Source of the DNA: Coleofasciculus chthonoplastes F2-STO-03
GTDB taxonomy: Bacteria; Cyanobacteriota; Cyanobacteriia; Cyanobacteriales; Coleofasciculaceae
Direction of reading: 5' to 3'
NCBI GenBank assembly: GCA_040222015.1
Contig: JAVJWO010000179.1
Location: forward strand, 26,751 to 90,750
DNA length: 64,000 nt
The position numbers and the translations under genes are program-made. A model generated the notes under the pieces. That model worked only from the letters and a program-made list of their open reading frames with translations, was not told the origin of the DNA and searched no databases. Shown here one piece after another: positions 8,438-64,000 of this stretch (positions are counted from its first letter, which is position 1; each line of letters opens with the position of its first letter).

Positions 8438-8549
8438 GGGCAGATGTTGTCATTGGTTATTCGTCCCTCATCCCCTAACCCCTTCTCCCAGAGGTTCCAT
8501 CGATGTGGCACAATAAAAGGCGTGATTTATCGGTTATCAGGTAATCAAA

Positions 8550-33698: not shown

Positions 33699-33955
33699 CG
33701 GACAGGAACTCCCCCAAAAAGCCACAGTTGCCCGCAAACTACAATTAGGTTGGGTTAGATATACCGTAGGGTGGGCAATGCCCACCAACCTTAAATCAGT
33801 GACCTTCGTATTAGGTTAAATGGCACTGACTTTAGAGTTTGTAGTAAGCGCTTAAGCGCTTACTACGAACCCAGCTTAAGTCAGCTACATTCGTATTAGG
33901 TTGGGTTTCGACTTCGCTCAACCCAACCGAAAAAGTAAAATGAGCGGATTAGCGA

Positions 33956-34078
33956 TTAATCGATGATCGCATTGACTAAGACTTCGGCTAGTGTCATATC
34001 CGCCATGTCATCTAGGGTAGCAGTGTCCGCAATATCAAACTTAGCACCTGCTCCTTGCAGTTCATCATCCAGAATCTT
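33956..34078 (-). pseudogene. C-terminal fragment of a vWA paralogue
   Basis: Translates as KILDDELQGAGAKFDIADTATLDDMADMTLAEVLVNAIID*, nearly identical to the C-terminus of 34363-34980. Confidence 0.85.
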
Positions 34079-34081
34079 AAT

Positions 34082-34187
34082 TAGGTTGAATGTCACTGAC
34101 TGGTATGCTGGTGGGCATCGCCCACCCTACGGTATATTAAGAATCTCGGCAATCCCACAATGCTTATTGAGCGTGCCATTGAGCTTA
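34082..34187. mobile_element. MITE carrying a GTAG-type REP (homologue at 40705-40810)
   Basis: Ends TAGGTTGAATGTCAC / GTGCCATTGAGCTTA with internal GTAGGGTGGGCGATGCCCACC. It aligns end to end with 40705-40810 in inverted orientation. Confidence 0.65.
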
Positions 34188-34193
34188 AGTTGA

Positions 34194-34295
34194 TAAGCTG
34201 TCATGCATTTAAATTGGGTATAGGTAGTGAGCAAGATGCTCACACTACAAAAATTTCCCATTCTTGATATTACGGTTTAAAAGCCAAACAGCTTA
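34194..34295. mobile_element. MITE with TAAGCTGT TIRs
   Basis: TAAGCTGTCATGCATTTAAA ... TTTAAAAGCCAAACAGCTTA. Confidence 0.55.
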
Positions 34296-34362
34296 GGGAC
34301 GGTTTAACTGATAACATTATTAATCAAACCAATAACTTTAGTAAACCCGCCCCGCTTAAGGT

Positions 34363-34980
34363 TCAATCCTCAATGGCGTTCAACAAGATTTCAGGTAACG
34401 TCATATCTGCCATATCATCCAGGGTAACGGTGTCAACGATATCGAATTTAGCACCCGCCCCTTGCAACTCATCATCAAGAATCTTGAGAAATCGCGTGGC
34501 TGTGGGATCGTTACCCACTTGAATCATAGAAATGGCTAATTCTTCATCCCGATCCATCTGACGCGACGCTTCCACAATCACTCGCATCACAGCTTTGCGA
34601 TCGTCCGGTTCCCCATCGGTGATGACTAAAATGGTTTCGCCTTCGGGTTTGGTTTGTCCGGCTGATTTGCGCTGAAAGTAGCTATTCAGTGCATCCTGAA
34701 GTACACTAGCCAAGTCAGTCCGTCCCATGGGGTCATTTTCTAAGAAGATTTGTCCCACTTTGTCTGAGATAACGTTATCGTAGCGTTTAAAGCGACTGGA
34801 AAAAAGGTAAACGGTTATACCATCGGGGTCAAACTGTTCACATTTTCGGGCGAGGGCGAGAGTTGATTCTTGGGCGGTATACCAACGGGTTTGCCCACCG
34901 GGTTGATCCGGTGTAGACATGCTGCCACTTTTATCGATGATTAGGGTGTAGTCGCGGTTTTCCATAATTGAATCTGCCAT
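34363..34980 (-). CDS. vWA domain protein
   Basis: MIDAS motif IIDKSGSM; ILVITDGEPD; IQVG. Confidence 0.9.
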   Translation of the reverse strand: MADSIMENRDYTLIIDKSGSMSTPDQPGGQTRWYTAQESTLALARKCEQFDPDGITVYLFSSRFKRYDNVISDKVGQIFLENDPMGRTDLASVLQDALNSYFQRKSAGQTKPEGETILVITDGEPDDRKAVMRVIVEASRQMDRDEELAISMIQVGNDPTATRFLKILDDELQGAGAKFDIVDTVTLDDMADMTLPEILLNAIED

Positions 34981-35562
34981 AACACTGATTTCGCGGATTT
35001 ATATAGAGAGATTGGGCTGGGGATTTGGGATTTTGGTCACACTGATTTCACGGATTTATGAGAGCGATCGGGCTGGGGATGTCCGAGGGTAGTAGCACTG
35101 ATTACACGCTCGGTTTTGGTACTCAAGGGCGGGTGTATGTCAACGCAAGTAGGTTGGGTTGAGGAACGAAACCCAACGAGAGCAGGTGAGCTTGAACATC
35201 TTGTACAAACCTGATCTGCTCCCCTCAACTGTTGATTACTTTTTAGTCTACCTCTATGCGTACCTGAGGTCATACACCTTTTGGTTGAATGTCACCGACT
35301 TAAGGGTGGTGGGCATTGCCCACCCTACGGTATATCCTGACTTTTCACGAGAAGTATAGAAACCTGAGCCGGGGCGGGCGCGAGTCACTTATGGGTGCAA
35401 CCGAAAAGATAGTAGTGAAACCCGCCCCTACAGGATGCTGCTAGCGAATTTAACATTTTGCCCTGGAATGACCGAAATACGTTAGAGCCGCTAACGATTT
35501 TATTGGCTTTGAGCGTTCTTTTATCACATTCGCCAGCAAAGCTACAGGTTACAGGATTAGGA

Positions 35563-38065: not shown

Positions 38066-38138
38066 ATCATTATTTTATCGTAGGGGCGCACAGACGTGCG
38101 CCCGGTTTTAGGTTGTGTACCTGCACGTTTTTATTATT

Positions 38139-38289
38139 TCCCCCTCATCCCCTAACCCCTTCTCCCACCCCCCTCGTTGGAGGACAGAGGATGCTTCGCT
38201 TTTGTTGCACGGGAGAAGGGGAACCGGACTCTCTTGCTCCCCTCTTACTCCCCTCTCCCAAGCTTGGGAGAGGGGCTGGGGGTGAGGGC
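38139..38289. repeat. C-rich/G-rich double-hairpin repeat (same family as the repeats in hsdM and hsdR)
   Basis: CCCCTCATCCCCTAACCCCTTCTCCC...GGGAGAAGGGG-linker-CCCCTCTCCCAAGCTTGGGAGAGGGGCTGGGGGTGAGGG. Confidence 0.75.
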
Positions 38290-39240: not shown

Positions 39241-39305
39241 AGTCGGGGCGGGTTTAGTCACATCTGGGTGCAACCAAAAAGATAGTTGTGAAACCCGCCC
39301 CTACA
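39241..39305. repeat. Dispersed REP-like element GGGGCGGGTTT...AAACCCGCCCC
   Basis: Copies at about 1238-1293, 35366-35432, 43837-43901, 51775-51850 and 52981-53033. Confidence 0.8.
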
Positions 39306-39331
39306 CATTTAACACGAATGTCGCTGAATTA

Positions 39332-43745: not shown

Positions 43746-43966
43746 CTGAGCCGGGGTGATGTAGAGACGCGCCATGGCGCGTCTAGGGATCTTGTAGAGA
43801 CGTTCCGGTGGAACGTCTGGAAGCTAGAGCAAATTGTGTAGGGGCGGGTTTCACTACTATCTTTTCGGTTACACCCAGATGTAAATAAACCCGCCCCGAC
43901 TTGACAAATGACAAATGACAAATGACGAATGACGAATGACAAAGGACATAGAGCGAATGACTAATC

Positions 43967-51875: not shown

Positions 51876-52826
51876 TCAAGACGAACACAGCAGGTTGATC
51901 AGAGATTGGGGGATCTCTTCAAAATGCTCTAACAAAAAATCCATGATTGCCAGATGGCGCAAATCAACGGGTTTAGGCGGGTAATATCCTTGACCTCGGT
52001 TGAACCAATTCTGTACAGTCCCCAGGGAACGGGAACAGATATGAGACAATTGCTCATACGTGACATCCCATTTGCCATAAAACTGCTTTGGCGTCATCCC
52101 TAATTCACAGTAACAATACAGGTCAATAATGTATTTTTCCCGCTGGTTAATGGGGCGGAGATTGTGTCGCCGTCGGGGATGATAGCGTTCAGTTGGACAT
52201 TGCACAGATAGGGGCGGTATCCCCCGGCGAGAATGGGTGGGATAACGGTAGGAGTTGCCATTCTCTTGATTGGGTTCAACAGTATCAGGTATTTTTTCTA
52301 AATCCGCTTCAGCCGCCGTATCCGTGGTTACCCAACCTGCACTGGGAGAATCAGAGGCGAGTTGGATGATGTAATAAACCATCCATTGATGGTGACTGTA
52401 GTCATAGAAACGCCCCAGAATTACGCCCCAGTCAGGATTAGCGGTTTTCCACTGAACGCGATCGCCTTCTTTATAGCTAGGGGTGGGGAATGGCAAATGG
52501 CGGCTACAGAAATTCTCCCCCAGCTTCCCCTGCTCCCCCAGCTTCCCCTGCTCCCTTATCTCCTCCATCTCCTCACCATGACGCAAGGTATTTAAAGTAC
52601 CAGCGATGAGTTTACCGTTGAGGCTTTGAATCAATTCTTGGATAAATAGCTGTGCGATCGCATGGACTTCTGCATCGGTTAGGTGCATTTGCAATGCATC
52701 GAAGTCAATGTCGCGGTAATGCTTGAGTCGAGAGAGGAGTTGGTTAATGCCAAATTCCGCTAACGCTTGCTGGGCAGTTGTTTCGGGCGTATGGGAATTG
52801 TCGAATTGAGGGGGTAACGGTTTCAT
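51876..52826 (-). CDS. Hypothetical multi-domain protein with C-terminal HTH
   Basis: HTH-like C-terminus MTPKQFYGKWDVTYEQLSHICSRSLGTVQNWF; central beta-rich GDRVQW...DWGVILGRFY segment; in-frame nonamer repeat (EQGKLG)2. Confidence 0.65.
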   Translation of the reverse strand: MKPLPPQFDNSHTPETTAQQALAEFGINQLLSRLKHYRDIDFDALQMHLTDAEVHAIAQLFIQELIQSLNGKLIAGTLNTLRHGEEMEEIREQGKLGEQGKLGENFCSRHLPFPTPSYKEGDRVQWKTANPDWGVILGRFYDYSHHQWMVYYIIQLASDSPSAGWVTTDTAAEADLEKIPDTVEPNQENGNSYRYPTHSRRGIPPLSVQCPTERYHPRRRHNLRPINQREKYIIDLYCYCELGMTPKQFYGKWDVTYEQLSHICSRSLGTVQNWFNRGQGYYPPKPVDLRHLAIMDFLLEHFEEIPQSLINLLCSS

Positions 52827-53163
52827 GGCGTTCTTTTGTTTATGTTGCGATAATATAACTTTATCACAAAAATAATGTTATAACAAAAATAACCAAATGA
52901 AAACCCCTTTGTCTCACCCCCCTTACCCCCCTCGTTCCCCCCTGGCTACAAGAGGGGCTAAGCTTAAGTTGACACCAATGTTTCACTACTATCTTTTTGG
53001 TTACACCCATAAGTAACTAAACCCGCCCCGACTTTACATAAGACATAAGACAATCTTTAATTGTCCCCACCGACTTATAAAGATTGCCAGCGACCCAGCC
53101 CATCGCTTACCCTAAAAAAAGTGAGCCTCAATCCGCTCAATCGGATTACTGGAGATAACGATA

Positions 53164-54828
53164 TTGCCGAAAACCAAAGCCAAAAACAGCGAAACCCTAG
53201 AGCAGAAGTTGTGGAAGTCGGCAGATAAACTCCGCAAAAATATTGATGCTGCCGAATACAAGCATATTCTGTTGGGGTTAATCTTCCTCAAATACATTTC
53301 TGATGCCTTTGAATCCTTACATCAAAAACTCATCGCGGGAGAAGGGGAATATGAAGGAGCCGACCCCGAAGATAAAGACGAATATAAAGCCGAAAACGTT
53401 TTCTTTGTGCCACCAGAGGCGCGGTGGTCAACCCTACAAGCTCAAGCCAAACTCCCCGATATTGGGCAGCGAGTTGATGAGGCGATGGAAGCCATAGAAC
53501 AGGAAAATCCCAAACTGTTAAAAGGAATTTTACCCAAGGTTTATGGTCAACAAAAGCTTGATTCTGCCTCTTTAGGAGGACTGATTGACCTAATCGGCAG
53601 TGCCAAGCTGATTGGGGAGACTAAGGCAAGTAGCGAACAGCTAGAACTTGATATAGACCAAAACGCCCAGAAGCTCCAACAAGCGGATATATTGGGGCAG
53701 GTGTACGAATACTTTTTAGGGCAGTTTGCCCTGGCAGAAGGCAAGAAAGGCGGACAATTCTACACGCCAGAAAGTGTGGTGCGAGTATTAGTAGAAATGC
53801 TAGAGCCGTATCAGGGGCGGGTGTTTGACCCCTGTTGTGGGTCAGGGGGAATGTTCGTTCAAAGTGAAAAGTTCATCGCGGCGCACCGGGGACGAATTGA
53901 TGATATTTCCATCTACGGACAAGAAAGCAACGAAACCACTTATAAACTCTGTCGGATGAATTTGGCGATTCGGGGGATTGATGGCTCTAATATTAAGTGG
54001 AACCCGGAGGGGTCATTTCTCAATGATGCTCACAAGGATTTAAAAGCCGATTTTGTGATTGCTAATCCGCCGTTTAATGATAGCGATTGGGGCGGGGAAT
54101 TGCTGCGAAAAGATGGACGTTGGCGTTATGGTGTACCGCCTGTGGGTAATGCTAACTTTGCTTGGGTGCAGCATTTCCTCTATCATTTGGCTCCGACGGG
54201 GGCGGCGGGGTTTGTGTTGTCGAATGGCTCGCTGTCGTCGAATACGGGGGGCGAGGGGGAGATTCGCCAAGCTTTAGTCGAAGCGGATTTAGTAGACTGT
54301 ATTGTGATGTTGCCGACGCAGTTGTTTTATAACACGGGAATTCCGGCTTGTTTGTGGTTTCTCAGTCGTTATAAGAATGGGAATAAGAATCGCAATCGCC
54401 AAGGAGAGGTGTTATTTATTGATGCGTCGGAGTTGGGCTATATGGTTAATCGTCGCAATCGAGCGTTTACTGATGAAGATATCGGTAAGATTGCGGGGAC
54501 GTATCATACTTGGAAGCGGAAGCCCTCCCCTAGCCCCTCTCCCTCCCCTAGCCCCTCCCAAAGGGAGGGGCACAGGGGGGATTACAAGGATATTAAAGGG
54601 TTTTGTAAGTCGGCGACGTTGGCGGATATCCAGAAGCACAATTTTGTGTTAACGCCGGGGCGTTATGTGGGCATTCCTGAAGAAGAAGATGATGGTATAC
54701 CTTTTGAGGAGAAAATGGGGGAGTTGACGGCACAGTTGGCGGCGCAGATGCAGGAGGCGGCACAATTAGATGAGGAGATTAAGGTACAGTTAGCGAAGGT
54801 GGGGTTTGATTTGGAGGTGGAATCATGA
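53164..54828 (+). CDS. hsdM: Type I restriction-modification methyltransferase subunit
   Basis: [31 protein letters not shown] and LTPGRYVG. Confidence 0.96.
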
Positions 54829-55064
54829 CATTACAGGAAATTCTTGAGGCGGTGGATGAGTTGTCTGTGGTTGAGCAAACTTCACTGTTTAATGTGCTTC
54901 AGGTAAAATTAGCTCAAGCTTCTCAATCTAGCTCAAATGGGGAAACGTTTTGGGCAATGACTTTAAGGTTTCGAGAACGGATAGAGCGAGAAGGGATTGA
55001 GTTTACTGATGAGGATTTCGCGGATTTGCGAGACCGTAGTCCGGGGCGGGAGGTCGAGCTATGA
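54825..55064 (+). CDS. Putative antitoxin (VapB-like)
   Basis: 79-aa ORF overlapping the PIN gene by ATGA; C-terminal [12 protein letters not shown] is typical of cyanobacterial antitoxins. Confidence 0.75.
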
Positions 55065-55492
55065 CAGCGCAATTTATTCTAGATACCAATGTAATTTCTG
55101 AAGTTAACAAGAAGGTTCCTAACCAATCTGTAGTTGCCAAGATGGATTTGTATGAGGGTAAAGTGGCAACGGCATCCGTGGTCGTGCATGAGTTGCTCTA
55201 CGGAACGTTGCGGATGCCGCCTGAGTCAGCAAAACGAACATTTTTGTTAGATTATCTGGCTGAGTTGCCATCAAAGATGATTGTTTTTGACTATGATCTC
55301 AACGCGGCTCGCTGGCACGCTGAGGAGCGAGCAAAACTATCTAAGATTGGGAAAACGCCTGCATTTGTTGATGGGCAAATTGCCAGTATTGCTTTCTGTA
55401 ATGGGTTGGTTTTAGTGACCAGGAATGAAACAGATTTTCAAGATTTTGAGGGTTTATCTGTTGAAAATTGGTTTGTCGTGGAGGAGGAATGA
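55061..55492 (+). CDS. vapC: PIN-domain toxin (VapC family)
   Basis: ILDTNVISE, HELLYG, FVDGQIASIA and LVTRNETDF. Confidence 0.92.
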   Translation: MTAQFILDTNVISEVNKKVPNQSVVAKMDLYEGKVATASVVVHELLYGTLRMPPESAKRTFLLDYLAELPSKMIVFDYDLNAARWHAEERAKLSKIGKTPAFVDGQIASIAFCNGLVLVTRNETDFQDFEGLSVENWFVVEEE

Positions 55493-55569
55493 TGGAGCAT
55501 ATGAAGGAGGCAGAGGTGCTGGATCAGGAGATTAAGGCGTGGTTGGTAAAGGTGAGGTTTGAGGTATGA
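55489..55569 (+). other. 26-aa mini-ORF, a diverged duplicate of the HsdM C-terminus that links vapC to hsdS
   Basis: MMEHMKEAEVLDQEIKAWLVKVRFEV* versus Hsd[31 protein letters not shown] overlaps at both ends. Confidence 0.7.
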
Positions 55570-56768
55570 GTGATTGGAAGGAGATAACCCTAGGAGATCT
55601 CGTCACATTTCAACGAGGACATGACTTATCTCAGAAACAGTTTCTAGGTGGGAAATATCCTATTGTCAGCTCCTATGGAATTATCGGATATCACAATAAA
55701 TCCACAACATCAGGGCATGGAGTGACCATCGGGCGTAGCGGTAACAGCATAGGAAAGCCCTTCTTTGTCGAGTCGGAGTTTTGGGCACACAACACAACTC
55801 TATATGTCAAAGAGTTTCATGACAGCTTTCCAAGATTCGTGTACTACTTGCTTCAAACAATTAACTTTAGGGCTTTAGATTCGGGTAGTGCTGTTCCCTC
55901 ACTGAATAGAAATTATATTCATCCTCTGCCTATTAAAGTCCCAGAATATGATGAGCAGAAGAAGATAGCTGATGTTCTAAACTGCCTCGATCGCAAGATT
56001 GAAAACCTCCGTAAACAAAACGATACACTAGAGGCGATCGCGCAAACTCTATTTAAACATTGGTTCGTCGATTTCGAGTTCCCCAACGCCGACGGCAAGC
56101 CCTACAAATCCTCCGGTGGCGCAATGGAACCTTCAGAGTTAGGCGAAATTCCCGCAGGCTGGCGCGTTGTTCGGATTGAAGAAATTGCTGACAGGATTGC
56201 CATGGAACCGTTTGGGTCTCGAATAAAAACCGATAATTTTGTAGATAGCGGTGTGCCTGTGATCAGAGGTGGAAATCTAGTCAATGGTTTTAACGAAAGC
56301 GATTTTGTCTATATTACCGAAGAAAAAGCTGACGATTTGAAGAGTTCTAATGCTTTCCCTGAAGATATTATATTCACTCATAGAGGAACATTAGGTCAGG
56401 TAGGTTTCATCCCTACCAACTCACAATATCCTCGCTATGTCGTATCCCAAAATCAAATGCTTCTTAGTGTTAACAAGAAACTTGTAAGCTCTAGATATGT
56501 CTACCGATTCTTCTGCTCTAAAGGAGGATTAAACGCAATTCTCGCCAACACAAATACTACGGGTGTTCCTTCAATTGGAAGACCTACAACGACTCTGAAA
56601 TCAATTCAATTAGTAATACCAGAAAAAAGCATTTTAAGTCAATTTGATTCCTTAATAAGAGTGGCAGATTTAAAAAAAGAGGCAAACAGCCAACAAATGA
56701 AAACCTTGGCTGAGACTCGTGATTTCCTTTTGCCTAAATTGATGAATGGTAAAATTTGCATAGCCTAA
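55566..56768 (+). CDS. hsdS: Type I R-M specificity subunit
   Basis: Two TRDs; conserved EQKKIADVL..LDRKIE, SELGEIPAGW and RDFLLPKLM. Confidence 0.95.
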   Translation: MSDWKEITLGDLVTFQRGHDLSQKQFLGGKYPIVSSYGIIGYHNKSTTSGHGVTIGRSGNSIGKPFFVESEFWAHNTTLYVKEFHDSFPRFVYYLLQTINFRALDSGSAVPSLNRNYIHPLPIKVPEYDEQKKIADVLNCLDRKIENLRKQNDTLEAIAQTLFKHWFVDFEFPNADGKPYKSSGGAMEPSELGEIPAGWRVVRIEEIADRIAMEPFGSRIKTDNFVDSGVPVIRGGNLVNGFNESDFVYITEEKADDLKSSNAFPEDIIFTHRGTLGQVGFIPTNSQYPRYVVSQNQMLLSVNKKLVSSRYVYRFFCSKGGLNAILANTNTTGVPSIGRPTTTLKSIQLVIPEKSILSQFDSLIRVADLKKEANSQQMKTLAETRDFLLPKLMNGKICIA

Positions 56769-56774
56769 AAGTCC

Positions 56775-57797
56775 ATGCTTTATAATGAAAACCCTGAATT
56801 CAATGATTATATAGATCAACATTATGGAGATGTTGTTATAGGGGATTTTTGCCGTCCAGCCAGCCTTGTCTTGTTTGAGATGGACGACATAGAATACCGA
56901 AGCCTTTATAATCAATACCTAGATGAACAAAAGATATCAGTTTTAGACCAGGTAATTGATGTTTTTCCTGCACCTATAGCATTCCATTATGAGCGAGCCT
57001 TACACGGATATGACAATTACACTCAAAGATTACATTACTTGCGATCAACATGGGAAGCAATAATACTTTTTATATATGCACTGACAGTAGGTGAAATTAT
57101 TGATAAATCTCTAAGCATAAGCTCAGTAAAAATATTTAAAAATCAGCGTATTTCTTGTGATGGAGGAGGTCTTCTTAGCGACAAATTGGGTTATAAAATT
57201 GAAGTAGTTGAGAAAATACTTGATTTTAATAATAATGGCTGTCATGGCTTGATTGTTGGAGATTTAATACCGATATCTGTTATCTCTATTCTTAGAGATC
57301 TAAACAGTACCCGTAATTCCATTTCTCATACATCTGCACTTAGTGAAGAACAGGCAAAAGAGCTTTTTGAAGAAAATCACCCAAATGTAAAGGAGCTTCT
57401 TTTTGAGCTTAGAAAATTGTCAAGCTTATCATTACTTAAATTCAAGTCTACTATTACATCCATTACTAAAATTAGATTTTCTCGATTCAGAGGATTTTCC
57501 TTAAGGGATAGAAACTATGAAAAAGACGTGGATCGGGAATTCATGAACAAAAATTTAGTAAATCTTAGAGATGAATACCTGTTTTGTGAATTTGAGGATG
57601 ATGACCAGGTAATTTGTTTGTCACCTTTTGCTTCTACATTGAATCATAACGGACAGAATTGTATTGCATGGTACAAAAAGCTAGATAATTCAGCGAGTAA
57701 GTATTTCTTTGAAATAGTATCTGATTCCCCTGTCGAAATTGATTTAGATGCCAACATTTTTGAAAAACCTATACAGGCTTTGAGGGATTTACTGTGA
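56775..57797 (+). CDS. Hypothetical protein with RxxxxH (HEPN-like) motif
   Basis: 340-aa AT-rich ORF with LNSTRNSISH (codons 57312-57329); it overlaps the hsdR start (GTGA). Confidence 0.6.
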   Translation: MLYNENPEFNDYIDQHYGDVVIGDFCRPASLVLFEMDDIEYRSLYNQYLDEQKISVLDQVIDVFPAPIAFHYERALHGYDNYTQRLHYLRSTWEAIILFIYALTVGEIIDKSLSISSVKIFKNQRISCDGGGLLSDKLGYKIEVVEKILDFNNNGCHGLIVGDLIPISVISILRDLNSTRNSISHTSALSEEQAKELFEENHPNVKELLFELRKLSSLSLLKFKSTITSITKIRFSRFRGFSLRDRNYEKDVDREFMNKNLVNLRDEYLFCEFEDDDQVICLSPFASTLNHNGQNCIAWYKKLDNSASKYFFEIVSDSPVEIDLDANIFEKPIQALRDLL

Positions 57798-60700
57798 ATT
57801 ACACAAGCGAAGACAAAATCGAACGATACAACCTCCAACTTTTGCAAGCCCTCGGCTACAGCTACAAAAACGGTTACGACATCCAACCCGACGGCATAAC
57901 CCCTGAACGGCAAAGCTTTAGCGACGCATTGCTGGTAGACCGCCTCAGCCAAGCCATCAGCCGCATTAACCCCCACATTCCCCCCGATATCCGCAATCAA
58001 GCCCAACGGGACTTACAAAACATCGCCAGCCCTGACCTGATCAACAATAACGAAACCTGCCACCGCTACCTCACCGAAGGCATCACCGTTGAATATACCA
58101 AAAACGGCGAAACCAAAGGCGAACAACTCTGGCTGATTGACTGGGAAACCCCCGAAAACAACGAATTTCTCGCCGTTAACCAATTCACCATCATCGAAGA
58201 TAACCACCAACGCCGCCCCGATATTATCCTATTTATTAACGGATTACCCTTAGTCGTCATCGAACTGAAAAACGCCGCCGATACCAAAGCCAACCTCTAC
58301 GCCGCCTATAACCAACTGCAAACTTATAAACAGGAAATCCCCAGCTTATTTACCTATAACGCCCTGCTGATTATCTCCGATGGACTGTCAGCCCGTGCGG
58401 GTTCCCTTTCTGCCGACTATAACCGCTTTAGCCAGTGGAAACGCAAACTCCCCAACGGCGACATCGACAACAACCCCGACACTAACGAACTGGAAATCCT
58501 CAGCCAAGGGATGCTGAATAAACACACCCTACTTGACCTAATCCGCCATTTCACCGTCTTTGAACAAACCAAAACCATAGACCCAGAAACCGAGGTTGTT
58601 CATCTGCAAACCCTCAAGAAAATCAGCGCTTATCACCAGTATTACGCTGTGAATAAAGCCGTCGAAAGTGTCTTGCAAGCGTGCGGAATCCCCTCCCCTA
58701 ACCCCTTTCCCTCCCCTAACCCCTCCCAACGGGAGGGGTATATGAAAGTCCCTCGCCCTTTGGGAGAGGGATTTAGGGAGAGGGCAGATCATCGCCCTTT
58801 GGGAGAGACATCTAGGGAGAGGGCAGATCATCACCCTGGGGGAGAGACATCTAGAGAGAGAGCAAATCCAACAGCTTATCGGGGTGGATTACCCGTAACA
58901 ACACTACTCAAACGAGCGCGAGAACTCCGTAAAAAACAGACTCCTGCCGAAATTATATTTTGGGAAACCGTCAGGGCTAAACGATTCTGTGGGCTAAAAT
59001 TTCGTCGTCAACATCAGATAGGACATTACATCGTCGATTTTTACTGCCATCAACACCAATTAGTGATTGAATTAGATGGTGGAGTGCATGAACAACCCCA
59101 ACAAAAAAAACGCGATCGCGAAAGAGAGAATTATCTTAAATCCCTGGGTCATACCGTTCTACGCTTCCCCAATCAGGCGATTTTCAATGATCTTGAATCG
59201 GTTTTGCGATCGATCCTTCAGCATCTTGGTTTGCCCTTTCCCTCCCCTGACCCCTTTCCCTCCCCTAGCCCCTCCCAACGGGAGGGGAATATGAAAGTCC
59301 CTCGCCCTTTGGGAGAGGGACTTAGGGAGAGGGGCGGAGTCCTTTGGCATACCCAAGGGAGCGGTAAATCCCTGTCCATGGTCTTCCTCAGTGGTAAACT
59401 CGTTCTGGCATTAAATAACCCCACCCTAGTTATCTTGACCGATCGCAACGACCTCGACGACCAACTCTTTGATACCTTCGCCGGCTGTCGTCAACTGCTG
59501 CGTCAAGAACCCCAACAAGCCGAAAACCGCCAAGCCGTCCGGGAACTCCTCAACGTCGCCTCTGGGGGGATTATCTTTACCACCGTTCAGAAATTCGCCC
59601 CCGAAGACGGCGAAACCCTTTATCCCAAAATTAGCGATCGCGCCAACATTGTTGTTTTAGCCGACGAAGCCCACCGCAGTCAATACGGATTCAAAGCCAA
59701 ACAAGTTACCCTCAAAGACGCAGACGGAAACGAAATCGGCAAAGCCACCCGCTACGGCTTCGCCAAATACATCCGCGATGCCCTCCCCAACGCCACCTTT
59801 GTCGGTTTCACCGGAACCCCCATCGAACAAAGCGACAAAAACACCCCGGAAATCTTCGGCAACTACATCGATATCTACGACATTGCCCAAGCCGTTAAAG
59901 ATGGCGCAACCGTCCCCATTTACTACGAAAGCCGCTTAGTCCCAGTAGATCTCGACGCCCAAGGGCGGAAATTACTCGATGAACTGGACGAAGACCTCAG
60001 TTTTGAAGACCTCAACACCACCCAAAAAGCCAAAGCCAAACAAACCCAAATTGAAGCGATTGTCGGGTCGAGCCAACGTCTTACCACCATCGCCCATGAT
60101 ATCATCACCCACTTTGAACAACGCCAAACCGCCAATCGCGGCAAAGGGATGATTGTCACCCTCAGCCGTCAAATTGCCGCCAACCTCTACGACAACATAA
60201 TTAAACGGCGTCCTGATTGGCATAGTGACGACCTTAACCACGGCAAAATCAAAGTCGTAATGACCGCCAGTGCTTCCGATGAAGGCAATCTGGTACAACA
60301 TCATACCAGTAAACGCGATCGCCAAATCCTCGCCCAACGCCTCAAAGACCCCGAAAACGACCTCGAACTGGTTATCGTCTGCGATATGTGGCTGACTGGG
60401 TTTGATGCCCCTTGTCTCCACACCATGTATATGGATAAGCCCATGAAAGGGCATAATTTAATGCAGGCGATCGCGCGAATCAACCGAGTTTACTATGAAA
60501 AGCAAGGCGGCTTAATTGTCGATTATCTCGGCGTCGCCAGCGAACTCAAAAAAGCATTATCCTTTTATTCCCAAAGCGGCGGTAAAGGTCAACTCACCCT
60601 CGACCAAGACGTCGCCCTAGGCTTATTTTTAACCCAACTGGAAATCGTCGAGCAAATCCTCGCTGATTACGACTACCCCTCTTATTTCAGCGCTGAAATT

Positions 60701-61570
60701 GCCGAAAAGCTAAATATTCTCAAAGGAGCGACCAATTATGCCGCTCATCCAGACATTAAAGGGCGATTTTTAGACGCTGTTACCGCCTTATCGCGGAGTT
60801 ACGCCTTAATCGCTCATCATCCCCACGCGATCGCGCAAGCCGAAAAAGTGTCCTTCTTCCAAGCCATTAAAGCCAGCTTGCGTAAACTCGAACCTAGTGA
60901 TGGTAGTCTCAGCGATCGGGAACTAGAAACCGCCATTCGTCAAGTCGTTGACCAAGCCCTAGTATCCGATGCTGTTGTTAATATCTTTGACGAAGCAGGC
61001 ATTCAAAACCCCGATGTATCGATTATCTCCGAACAGTTTTTAGCCGAAGTCGAAGGCATGGAACACCAAAACCTCGCCGTTGAGGTGTTGAAAAAGCTCC
61101 TCAAAGAAGAAGTTAAAGCCAAAAGCCGGACTAACATCGTTCAAAGTCGCAAGTTAGCCGAAATGCTCGAACATACCTTGCGTCGCTACCAAAACCAAGT
61201 AATTAGTGTCACCGATGTGATTCAAGAACTGCTCCAGATGGCGCGAGATGTACAAGCAGCCACCCAACGGGGAGAAGACTTGGGGCTAGAACCCTACGAA
61301 CTCGCCTTTTATGACGCCCTCGCGCAAAACCGAAGCGCTCAAGACGTGATGGGAGTTGACCAACTGTGGGAATTAGCCAGGGTATTAGTCAGCCGCATTC
61401 GTAAAAATGTCTCCATCGACTGGAATCTCAAAGAGAGTGCCAGAGCCAGAATGAAAGTGATGGTCAAGCGTTTACTGCGACAATATGGCTATCCACCAGA
61501 TATGCAAGCGTTGGCGATTGAACTGGTCTTAGAGCAAGCCAAAGTATTTACAGAGTCAGGACTACTGTAA
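57794..61570 (+). CDS. hsdR: Type I R-M restriction subunit with in-frame DUF559-like endonuclease insertion
   Basis: RPDIILFINGLPLVVIELK nuclease motif, HTQGSGKS, DEAH, MWLTGFDAP and QAIARINR. An insert of about 215 aa lies just before Walker A. Confidence 0.94.
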   Translation: MNYTSEDKIERYNLQLLQALGYSYKNGYDIQPDGITPERQSFSDALLVDRLSQAISRINPHIPPDIRNQAQRDLQNIASPDLINNNETCHRYLTEGITVEYTKNGETKGEQLWLIDWETPENNEFLAVNQFTIIEDNHQRRPDIILFINGLPLVVIELKNAADTKANLYAAYNQLQTYKQEIPSLFTYNALLIISDGLSARAGSLSADYNRFSQWKRKLPNGDIDNNPDTNELEILSQGMLNKHTLLDLIRHFTVFEQTKTIDPETEVVHLQTLKKISAYHQYYAVNKAVESVLQACGIPSPNPFPSPNPSQREGYMKVPRPLGEGFRERADHRPLGETSRERADHHPGGETSRERANPTAYRGGLPVTTLLKRARELRKKQTPAEIIFWETVRAKRFCGLKFRRQHQIGHYIVDFYCHQHQLVIELDGGVHEQPQQKKRDRERENYLKSLGHTVLRFPNQAIFNDLESVLRSILQHLGLPFPSPDPFPSPSPSQREGNMKVPRPLGEGLRERGGVLWHTQGSGKSLSMVFLSGKLVLALNNPTLVILTDRNDLDDQLFDTFAGCRQLLRQEPQQAENRQAVRELLNVASGGIIFTTVQKFAPEDGETLYPKISDRANIVVLADEAHRSQYGFKAKQVTLKDADGNEIGKATRYGFAKYIRDALPNATFVGFTGTPIEQSDKNTPEIFGNYIDIYDIAQAVKDGATVPIYYESRLVPVDLDAQGRKLLDELDEDLSFEDLNTTQKAKAKQTQIEAIVGSSQRLTTIAHDIITHFEQRQTANRGKGMIVTLSRQIAANLYDNIIKRRPDWHSDDLNHGKIKVVMTASASDEGNLVQHHTSKRDRQILAQRLKDPENDLELVIVCDMWLTGFDAPCLHTMYMDKPMKGHNLMQAIARINRVYYEKQGGLIVDYLGVASELKKALSFYSQSGGKGQLTLDQDVALGLFLTQLEIVEQILADYDYPSYFSAEIAEKLNILKGATNYAAHPDIKGRFLDAVTALSRSYALIAHHPHAIAQAEKVSFFQAIKASLRKLEPSDGSLSDRELETAIRQVVDQALVSDAVVNIFDEAGIQNPDVSIISEQFLAEVEGMEHQNLAVEVLKKLLKEEVKAKSRTNIVQSRKLAEMLEHTLRRYQNQVISVTDVIQELLQMARDVQAATQRGEDLGLEPYELAFYDALAQNRSAQDVMGVDQLWELARVLVSRIRKNVSIDWNLKESARARMKVMVKRLLRQYGYPPDMQALAIELVLEQAKVFTESGLL
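58691..59333 (+). mobile_element. DUF559/Vsr-like endonuclease cassette bounded by 94-bp direct repeats
   Basis: Repeats 58691-58784 and 59240-59333 (4 mismatches, 549 bp apart) enclose RARELRKKQTPAE..W...KFRRQH.IG.YIVDFYC...VIELDGGVH...RD...G..VLRF.N. Confidence 0.75.
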
Positions 61571-63839: not shown

Positions 63840-64000
63840 TAGTAGGGGCACGGCAGTGCCCACCCGTGTCAACTTAAGGTAGAAAATCAATGCTGGCAAG
63901 GTTTTAAGCTGTGTCTATTTACTCCTCGACATTTCCCCCTCATCCCCTAACCCCAACTCCGGACCCCCCTCGTTCCCCCCTACCCCCCTCGTTCCCCCCT

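Follow-up and report, generated by a model that had tools for sequence, protein, structure and literature searches.

A DUF559 nuclease domain between BoxC/triplex-type repeats, read in frame within a cyanobacterial HsdR protein: a candidate selfish mobile cassette

In a 64,000-nucleotide stretch of the genome of Coleofasciculus chthonoplastes F2-STO-03 (contig JAVJWO010000179.1, positions 26,751 to 90,750; the window in the following), hsdR, the gene for the restriction subunit of a type I restriction-modification system, has within it an intact DUF559 domain of nuclease fold, on both sides of which lie hairpin repeats of the BoxC/triplex motif (TM) type (Table 1). The insertion is probably a selfish mobile cassette, which would be translated without splicing and would spread between hsdR alleles by a homing-like gene conversion. 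This reading builds on the observed anatomy, three allele states, patchy distribution, selection on the domain, recurrence in other proteins and co-occurrence of nuclease and repeat; the activity of the nuclease is inferred.

The two 94-bp copies which bracket the nuclease, each a doublet of repeat units, differ by four mismatches, lie 549 bp apart and are both in frame 0 of the hsdR open reading frame (ORF); the first-pass annotation of this DNA, which had proposed an in-frame nuclease cassette between these copies, was accurate in coordinates, mismatches, distance and frame. It had also counted about 215 extra amino acids in HsdR; the insert is indeed there, with an exact length of 217 aa between VLQA and GGVLW. 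The nuclease motif of EcoR124I aligns with HsdR's own, the Walker A motif follows immediately after the insert, and the closest HsdR, assigned to Coleofasciculus by its source, is 98% identical downstream of it. Removal of one repeat and the spacer in silico leaves an open frame of 1075 aa, in line with the expectation that recombination between the copies would keep the frame. Within each 94-mer, an L unit (C-rich tail, hairpin) and an R unit (hairpin, G-rich tail) stand in inverted orientation with 11 bp between them, and the 94-mer folds into two hairpins (z about -3.2; 0 of 200 shuffles, + strand); this double-hairpin fold, the two degenerate half-units and the solo unit in hsdM are all present as initially described. 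An in-frame ATG in each doublet (58742, 59291), five bases behind GGAGG of the L hairpin stem, could serve as an internal start, from which a nuclease-motor product or the motor only would be made; this combination of ATG and GGAGG is absent from alleles of other lineages.

Amino acids 372-478 of HsdR match DUF559 of Pfam (PF04480) with an E-value of 2e-36 and 124.5 bits, compared to a curated cut-off of 20.6, and the domain matches structure 3hrl at the profile level (E 7e-20) and as a model (template modelling score 0.88). DUF559 possesses a Vsr-like fold and belongs to the EDxHD catalytic fold group (PMC3424549). In an alignment-based model (mean predicted local distance difference test value, pLDDT, of 68), which matches 3hrl and EcoR124I, the DUF559 domain has a pLDDT of 72-92 and both repeat peptides one below 50; the repeat-coded peptides are accordingly modelled as low-confidence linkers around a well-folded domain in a predicted surface loop. 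Of 180 embedded domains, 177 retain the catalytic motif D..ExDGxxH, which reads D..ELDGGVH in the window. Values of dN/dS, obtained by simple counting over 118 codons, are 0.14, 0.06 and 0.06 in three unsaturated diverged pairs, downstream-flank values with intervening indels having been set aside as invalid; the embedded domain is under purifying selection. Neither a Hint domain (Pfam) nor a terminal His-Asn end was found in the insert, and an Rfam search gave chance hairpin matches only and no group I intron.

Alignment of HsdR proteins, a check put forward in the first-pass annotation, uncovered empty, repeat-only and full alleles. In a set of 116 HsdR rows, retrieved with a query that included the domain and enriched for carriers, 59 are full, five are repeat-only and 22 are empty with a short loop at the window's site, and 30 possess the cassette with the same end peptides at a second site approximately 35 aa upstream. 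Sampling by the upstream flank alone recovers few carriers, 3 of 13 cyanobacterial loci (the window's own included) and 2 of 80 metagenome loci, and only one of 51 genomes of the family, G002, has a window-type hsdR, the allele of which is full. Six metagenome loops flagged by pattern as solo repeats were ordinary loops on inspection and were dropped from the carriers.

On trees of the window's HsdR clade the insert state changes 11-12 times. That the 14 rows with an insert form one clade is rejected with the upstream (approximately unbiased test, p 1.6e-8) as well as the downstream flank (8e-29; 34 of 37 clade rows, quick trees, LG+G4), so that the history of the insert state is independent of that of either flank. 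The window and P0001 are sister to an empty allele (support 98), the full P0002 and the repeat-only P0013 to another (99), and the full P0004 together with the repeat-only P0022 to a third (99), while the repeat-only P0012 shares 97% identity with the empty P0081. In P0055 and L173, this HsdR loop is occupied by another DUF559 subgroup with other end repeats, suggesting that one tolerant site was invaded independently.

With respect to the ends, the 94-bp direct repeats, initially taken to define the element, are a minority form: a doublet on both sides occurs in only 6 of 123 DUF559 loci, and the common embedded form has one inward-facing unit per side. As simpler cassettes exist (L087 with one L unit, nuclease and one R unit; L041 with a doublet on the left only), the direct repeats are likely derived, and the basic unit would have inverted ends. 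The left doublet is nearest to its own right doublet in five of five two-doublet alleles (0.90 vs 0.70), from which it follows that the two ends exchange sequence. P0013 is 99.2% and 99.7% identical to P0002 on the two sides, with the start of the left copy joined to the end of the right one, the exact pattern that a pop-out from P0002 would produce. The genome of the window (G000) and G002 differ at 2 of 300 positions over the nuclease, compared to 34 of 300 upstream and 24 of 600 downstream.

The cassette recurs in other host proteins. Its nearest longer relatives (best 120 of 916) are embedded in HsdR at at least four sites, in HsdM at two sites, in HsdS and in leucyl-tRNA synthetase (LeuRS), all with the same end peptides, and one HsdM site is the position of the solo L unit in the window's hsdM. 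More distant in-frame hosts are UvrA, PriA, IspE, PrmA, an MpaA-like amidase and a PglX-like methylase, in addition to the end of HydE (scan of 15 of 38 frames, three added ones counted). In G000, four of four DUF559 adjoin BoxC-like hairpin repeats, one of them being a second in-frame cassette in a 1123-aa methyltransferase-like ORF, which, from its motifs, we take to be MmeI-like. Neither of the two sequence observations named beforehand as contradicting a cassette was made: DUF559 domains elsewhere are found together with repeats of this superfamily, and the HsdR proteins do not uniformly hold the domain without repeats. Proteins with two separate cassettes also occur (P0121-P0126, P0129, L207; HsdM, HsdR, LeuRS, IspE), and a free-standing DUF559 (L242, G000:C52:97000-105000) lies directly downstream of a restriction-modification-like gene pair that includes a 1156-aa frame with four in-frame repeat units.

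The YRGG-leader group, which comprises the nearest relatives of the window's domain, is almost entirely located in HsdR, HsdM or HsdS, as would be expected if the domain were a domesticated, removable add-on, a second nuclease for the type I complex in its R, M or S subunit with the pop-out as an off switch. The purifying selection and the repeat-only alleles with pop-out pattern equally agree with such a role. This explanation is nevertheless unlikely, as most alleles are empty by flank sampling, the positions are many and independent, DUF559 groups with the same ends reside in UvrA, PriA, IspE, PrmA and LeuRS, and the direct repeats required for switching are in the minority. Neither was switching seen in sequencing runs: the 549-bp excision product proposed as a check was not observed in 8 of 24 listed runs, analysed as contigs, which break at repeats. 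The nuclease part was covered in all six DNA runs, the two RNA runs providing one short contig each. Joints of 58795, 58824 and 58832 to 59333 were considered as excision products and discarded; they are best read as alleles with extra right-end half-units, like the one of G002.

The repeat is of a known kind, its layout matching the BoxC/TM motif once the last spacer of the published consensus (PMC4666352) is relaxed from 3 nt to 3-5 nt. Both cassette R units and the doublet at 38251-38288 conform to the relaxed consensus (three matches in the window, 0 in 100 shuffles); the strict consensus with its 3-nt second loop is not matched by the cassette R units, which have a second loop of 5 nt. 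G000 (7.7 Mb, 6037 HIP1 sites) has 4 strict and 88 relaxed matches with 0 in the reversed control, and 172 tailed units with 5 in the reversed genome; close neighbours among these units are arranged L-R 33 times and R-L once, and 24 units are located inside 13 long ORFs. Within 300 bp of DUF559 genes from GTDB genomes, relaxed matches are found at 14 of 67 loci and strict ones at 7 of 67, as opposed to 3 and 0, respectively, in 154 kb of farther flank. BoxC/TM repeats have been reported from more than 260 genomes and tied to instability, with no mobility gene nearby and the origin left open, and are described as always intergenic in E. coli K-12 (PMC4666352).

In same-genus genomes, repeat units have inserted into the hairpin loops of other units (38136-38289 vs L274; L240 vs L267-L269), an indication that cutting or joining may take place in the loop. 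Tandem in-frame expansion is seen with six L units in hsdM of G002 (L246), and a metagenome hsdR (L068) has four whole doublets left of the nuclease.

The window copy is probably not the source of the dispersed repeats, because its flanks have an exact 18-mer in common with one other locus of the genome only, the solo unit in hsdM. On the other hand, the 3' flank of a free-standing DUF559 on C165 has an 18-mer common to 63 loci and the flanks of the cassette on C130 one common to 85 loci, the window's intergenic repeats among them. These intergenic relatives (8465-8490, 38139-38289, 63934-63954) belong to the same superfamily, as first noted, but their 18-mers connect them to the two other DUF559 loci and not to the cassette in hsdR. 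Relatives of the window domain above approximately 65% identity are HsdR-embedded or HsdR-fragment-like; with the exact subtype confined to its locus, this indicates a lineage faithful to its site, which looks, on the sequences compared, like one that keeps to the type I locus and is no genome-wide spreader.

Beyond the window, repeat and nuclease are associated across genomes. Of 32 loci retrieved from cyanobacterial relatives 30 were aligned, and 27 of these have a C-rich hairpin within 300 bp, whereas about 47 kb of more distant flank holds 4 hairpins. From 593 GTDB loci the best 80 were taken, which span many phyla and one archaeon, are biased to close relatives and include 70 with both flanks; a C-rich hairpin lies within 250 bp on at least one side in 52 and on both sides in 37 of these, while at the ends of other ORFs in these loci the count is 14 of 261, which bears out the expected flank enrichment. 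Hairpin type follows the nuclease tree: it changes 13 times on it, and no fewer than 23 times in any of 300 shuffles (98 of the 139 rows carried a label), although the typing is crude and the agreement is inflated by kinship. Tails of embedded copies are mostly directed outward (15 vs 6) and those of free-standing copies mostly inward (19 vs 6).

Repeat load was compared in 300 genomes from the phylum, with 33 from smaller families left out and a strong DUF559 match being defined as E <=1e-16; motif counts include overlapping matches and the flanks of DUF559 itself. In family f42 (132 genomes), at least 10 motif matches occur in 28 of 58 genomes with a full-length DUF559 and in 1 of 74 that lack one; 9 of 10 genera show the same direction. 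The anticipated tracking of copy number with DUF559 therefore holds in f42 and is weaker in the window's class (135 genomes), where 52 of 82 genomes with and 15 of 53 without a strong DUF559 match reach this number; p-values of such comparisons are overstated since kin are not independent.

It is rather improbable that the repeats move and recombine alone through triplex or hairpin instability and host recombination, with DUF559 as a cargo, the activity of which is not needed for spread. Such a scenario draws on the instability tied to TM sites in E. coli, where no mobility gene was reported (PMC4666352), on the tandem expansion and nesting of units, and on the many repeats in those 15 of 53 genomes. 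It does not account for a single family being flanked in 52 of 70 loci, which no other cargo explains, for a catalytic motif kept in 177 of 180 domains at a dN/dS of 0.06-0.14, for a repeat load that tracks DUF559 within genera, or for the hairpin type following the nuclease tree. Least probable by far is that DUF559 acts as a very-short-patch mismatch repair nickase with the repeats as incidental neighbours, an idea invited by the Vsr-like fold (PMC3424549) and by the Caulobacter DUF559 protein VsrA, which has no linkage to its methylase and for which T:G repair is a proposal and not an in vitro result (PMC12907096): by a crude test the cytosine-methylase PCQ motif occurs within 1.5-2 kb of 0 of 140 DUF559 loci and none of 9 PCQ motifs in G000 is on a DUF559 contig, linkage not being obligatory, and repeats and in-frame inserts would be left unexplained.

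In the selfish-cassette reading, the cassette would be translated as an extra fused domain in the predicted surface loop, and the nuclease would nick or cut at or near the hairpin/triplex ends or the empty allele, whereupon repair of the cut would copy the cassette into the hsdR allele in a homing-like manner. Recombination between the ends may keep both alike and at times drop the nuclease to leave a repeat-only allele. Free-standing DUF559 genes could generate the dispersed repeat-only copies by analogy to RAYTs, which are thought to do so for REPINs. The nesting of units in hairpin loops would agree with recognition of the folded ends instead of the empty site.

Several observations weigh against this reading. 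The patchy trees could be explained equally by gain and by repeated loss through recombination with empty alleles, and P0013 is possibly an assembly collapse of P0002. Purifying selection could reflect use by the host or mere folding constraint, and the tract of low divergence between G000 and G002 is not unique, with 1 mismatch in 300 at 60494-60793 of hsdR. Of the 123 DUF559 loci, 9 have no hairpin on either side, and 15 of the 53 genomes of the oxygenic-cyanobacterial group that lack a strong DUF559 match reach at least 10 motif matches. The 549-bp skip did not appear in the contigs of the eight runs, and neither a clean junction nor a target duplication was found when five repeat loci were compared with same-genus genomes, where the junctions are ragged and nested; among the hsdR alleles compared there is no near-identical DNA pair of empty and full state. 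I-Bth0305I possesses separate DNA-binding repeats and acts as a dimer (PMC3239194). A NUMOD DNA-binding region as used by that enzyme was not found in the insert, the domain being preceded only by low-confidence repeat-coded peptide, and recognition of an empty allele is the weak point of the reading. Nuclease activity, target and intermediate are all inferred.

The association extends to E. coli K-12, the ycjD gene of which bears a DUF559 annotation and shares 43% identity with the window domain. This gene has a decayed hairpin at its stop codon and a full TM approximately 170 bp past the stop, before fabI (L282:2706-3261), and a partial repeat of the ycjD 3' end lies between the two. The first description of BoxC is traced to the sequence paper of envM (fabI) (cited in PMC4666352), and ycjD is present at the sapF-fabI site in some E. 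coli phylogroups, with another operon in others (PMC12817139). A plasmid search with the ycjD region returned repeat-only matches, bar two chromosome-sized records, among the 15 of 74 matches listed.

There is an even chance that the mobiliser so far missing for BoxC/triplex repeats is DUF559, which together with inverted triplex-forming ends would represent a new class of mobile element in bacteria and archaea without transposase or splicing. Such an element would be translated within loops of restriction and housekeeping proteins, home from allele to allele and seed repeat-only copies throughout the genome, with E. coli ycjD as a resident copy. The very common DUF559 domain has no assigned role and the origin of BoxC/TM is unexplained; the link between them provides a testable function for both, also in E. 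coli K-12 with ycjD beside BoxC. If true, selfish DNA would avoid harm as a separate translated domain on floppy repeat-coded linkers and not by splicing, and many restriction and housekeeping proteins with the odd annotation 'DUF559 domain-containing' would be accounted for.

As for the surroundings of hsdR, a 340-aa ORF without Pfam match is located between hsdS and hsdR (56775-57797) and a PIN-domain ORF between hsdM and hsdS (55061-55492); G002 has different cargo in both intervals. G005 (L280:3273-5297) has the same hsdM and PIN gene followed by a short hsdS-like ORF and transposon-like ORFs, presumably TnpB-like from their motifs, and almost no match to the window's hsdR within the 10 kb examined. 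Upstream of hsdM, a 316-aa ORF without Pfam match (51876-52826, - strand) contains 9-bp tandem repeats in frame. The window also harbours other dispersed palindromic families of the GTAG-type and the GGGTGGGCAATGCCCACC-type and many 7-bp tandem repeats (39241-39310, 43832-43901, 52980-53053 and 33758-35351 for these features together).

Table 1. Features of the type I locus and of related repeats, in window coordinates.
Feature	Position	Strand	Description
hsdR, type I restriction subunit, 1258 aa	57794..61570	+	Uninterrupted ORF; own nuclease motif, Walker A and DEAH intact
Left 94-bp doublet	58691..58784	+	Duplicated tail 58691-58708; L unit 58709-58738; 11-bp spacer; R unit 58750-58784 (BoxC/TM-like)
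Two degenerate tandem copies of the 39-bp R half-unit (92% and 74%)	58792..58869	+	Repeat family D13
DUF559 (Vsr/EDxHD-like nuclease fold) with YRGG leader	58877..59236	+	Pfam match 58907-59227; D..E-x-D-G-x-x-H motif intact
Right 94-bp doublet	59240..59333	+	L unit 59258-59287; R unit 59299-59333; stops directly before GGVLWHTQGSGKS
hsdM of the same type I locus	53164..54828	+	ORF and Pfam
hsdS of the same type I locus, without insert	55566..56768	+	ORF and Pfam
Solo L unit, in frame in hsdM	54523..54570	+	YHxW-R/K site, where other HsdM proteins hold the full cassette
Intergenic L-R doublet, different subtype	38136..38289		Matches flanks of DUF559 loci on C165 and C130; extra piece in first hairpin loop
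Partial intergenic L unit, C165 subtype	8459..8496		Sequence match
Partial intergenic L unit, C165 subtype	63931..63968		Sequence match

Among known systems, inteins are characterized by a Hint domain and a terminal His-Asn followed by Cys, Ser or Thr. While the cassette is likewise an in-frame nuclease-bearing insert beside an ATPase motif, it lacks Hint domain and His-Asn end and resides in a variable loop instead of a conserved motif. The EDxHD homing endonuclease I-Bth0305I (PMC3239194) shares with the cassette the catalytic fold group and the patchy full and empty alleles at a fixed site; the cassette is, however, without NUMOD, group I intron or split intein, is bounded by repeats, stays fused and occupies many sites per gene. 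Rickettsia palindromic elements (per PMC2229807, PMC10969869) are also palindromic repeats read in frame in working genes, but encode no enzyme and are restricted to the genus, whereas the cassette repeats travel with a folded nuclease domain of 120 aa across many phyla. The Caulobacter CIR repeat, considered as a further relative, is described as GANTC-bearing and intergenic with stops in all frames (PMC2229807), and the cassette repeat is set apart from it by this description.

REPtrons, composed of a RAYT and REP/REPIN repeats (PMC3116915, PMC3733652), resemble the cassette as a small enzyme gene flanked by dispersed hairpin repeats, often inverted doublets, and resemble the DUF559 family in a repeat load tied to the enzyme, the exact subtype of the window copy being confined to its locus. 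The enzyme is an HUH tyrosine transposase in REPtrons and has the PD-(D/E)XK Vsr-like fold here; the GTAG/CGTC tag at the hairpin foot was not found in the cassette repeats, and in the present case it is the entire enzyme gene which has entered host proteins in frame. As there is no HUH transposase (HUH motif at 0 of 140 DUF559 loci by a crude motif test), the cassette is not a member of the REPtrons, to which the first-pass annotation had likened it.

Closest are the BoxC/PIT/TM_ECO intrastrand triplex repeats (PMC4666352), which equally consist of a hairpin with a G-rich tail and form inverted pairs, the cassette units differing by their translation in frame and their position on both sides of a nuclease gene, with a spacer of 5 nt and shorter-stemmed L units. 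A link between DUF559 and these repeats or an in-frame cassette was not found in the literature searched, which included the available parts of PMC3184786 and PMC1189080 and few subscription papers; the supplement of PMC4666352, the flanking-gene table of which may name ycjD, lay outside the search. Both parts of the cassette are known separately, and it is their pairing and the unspliced in-frame lifestyle which fit none of the families tested.

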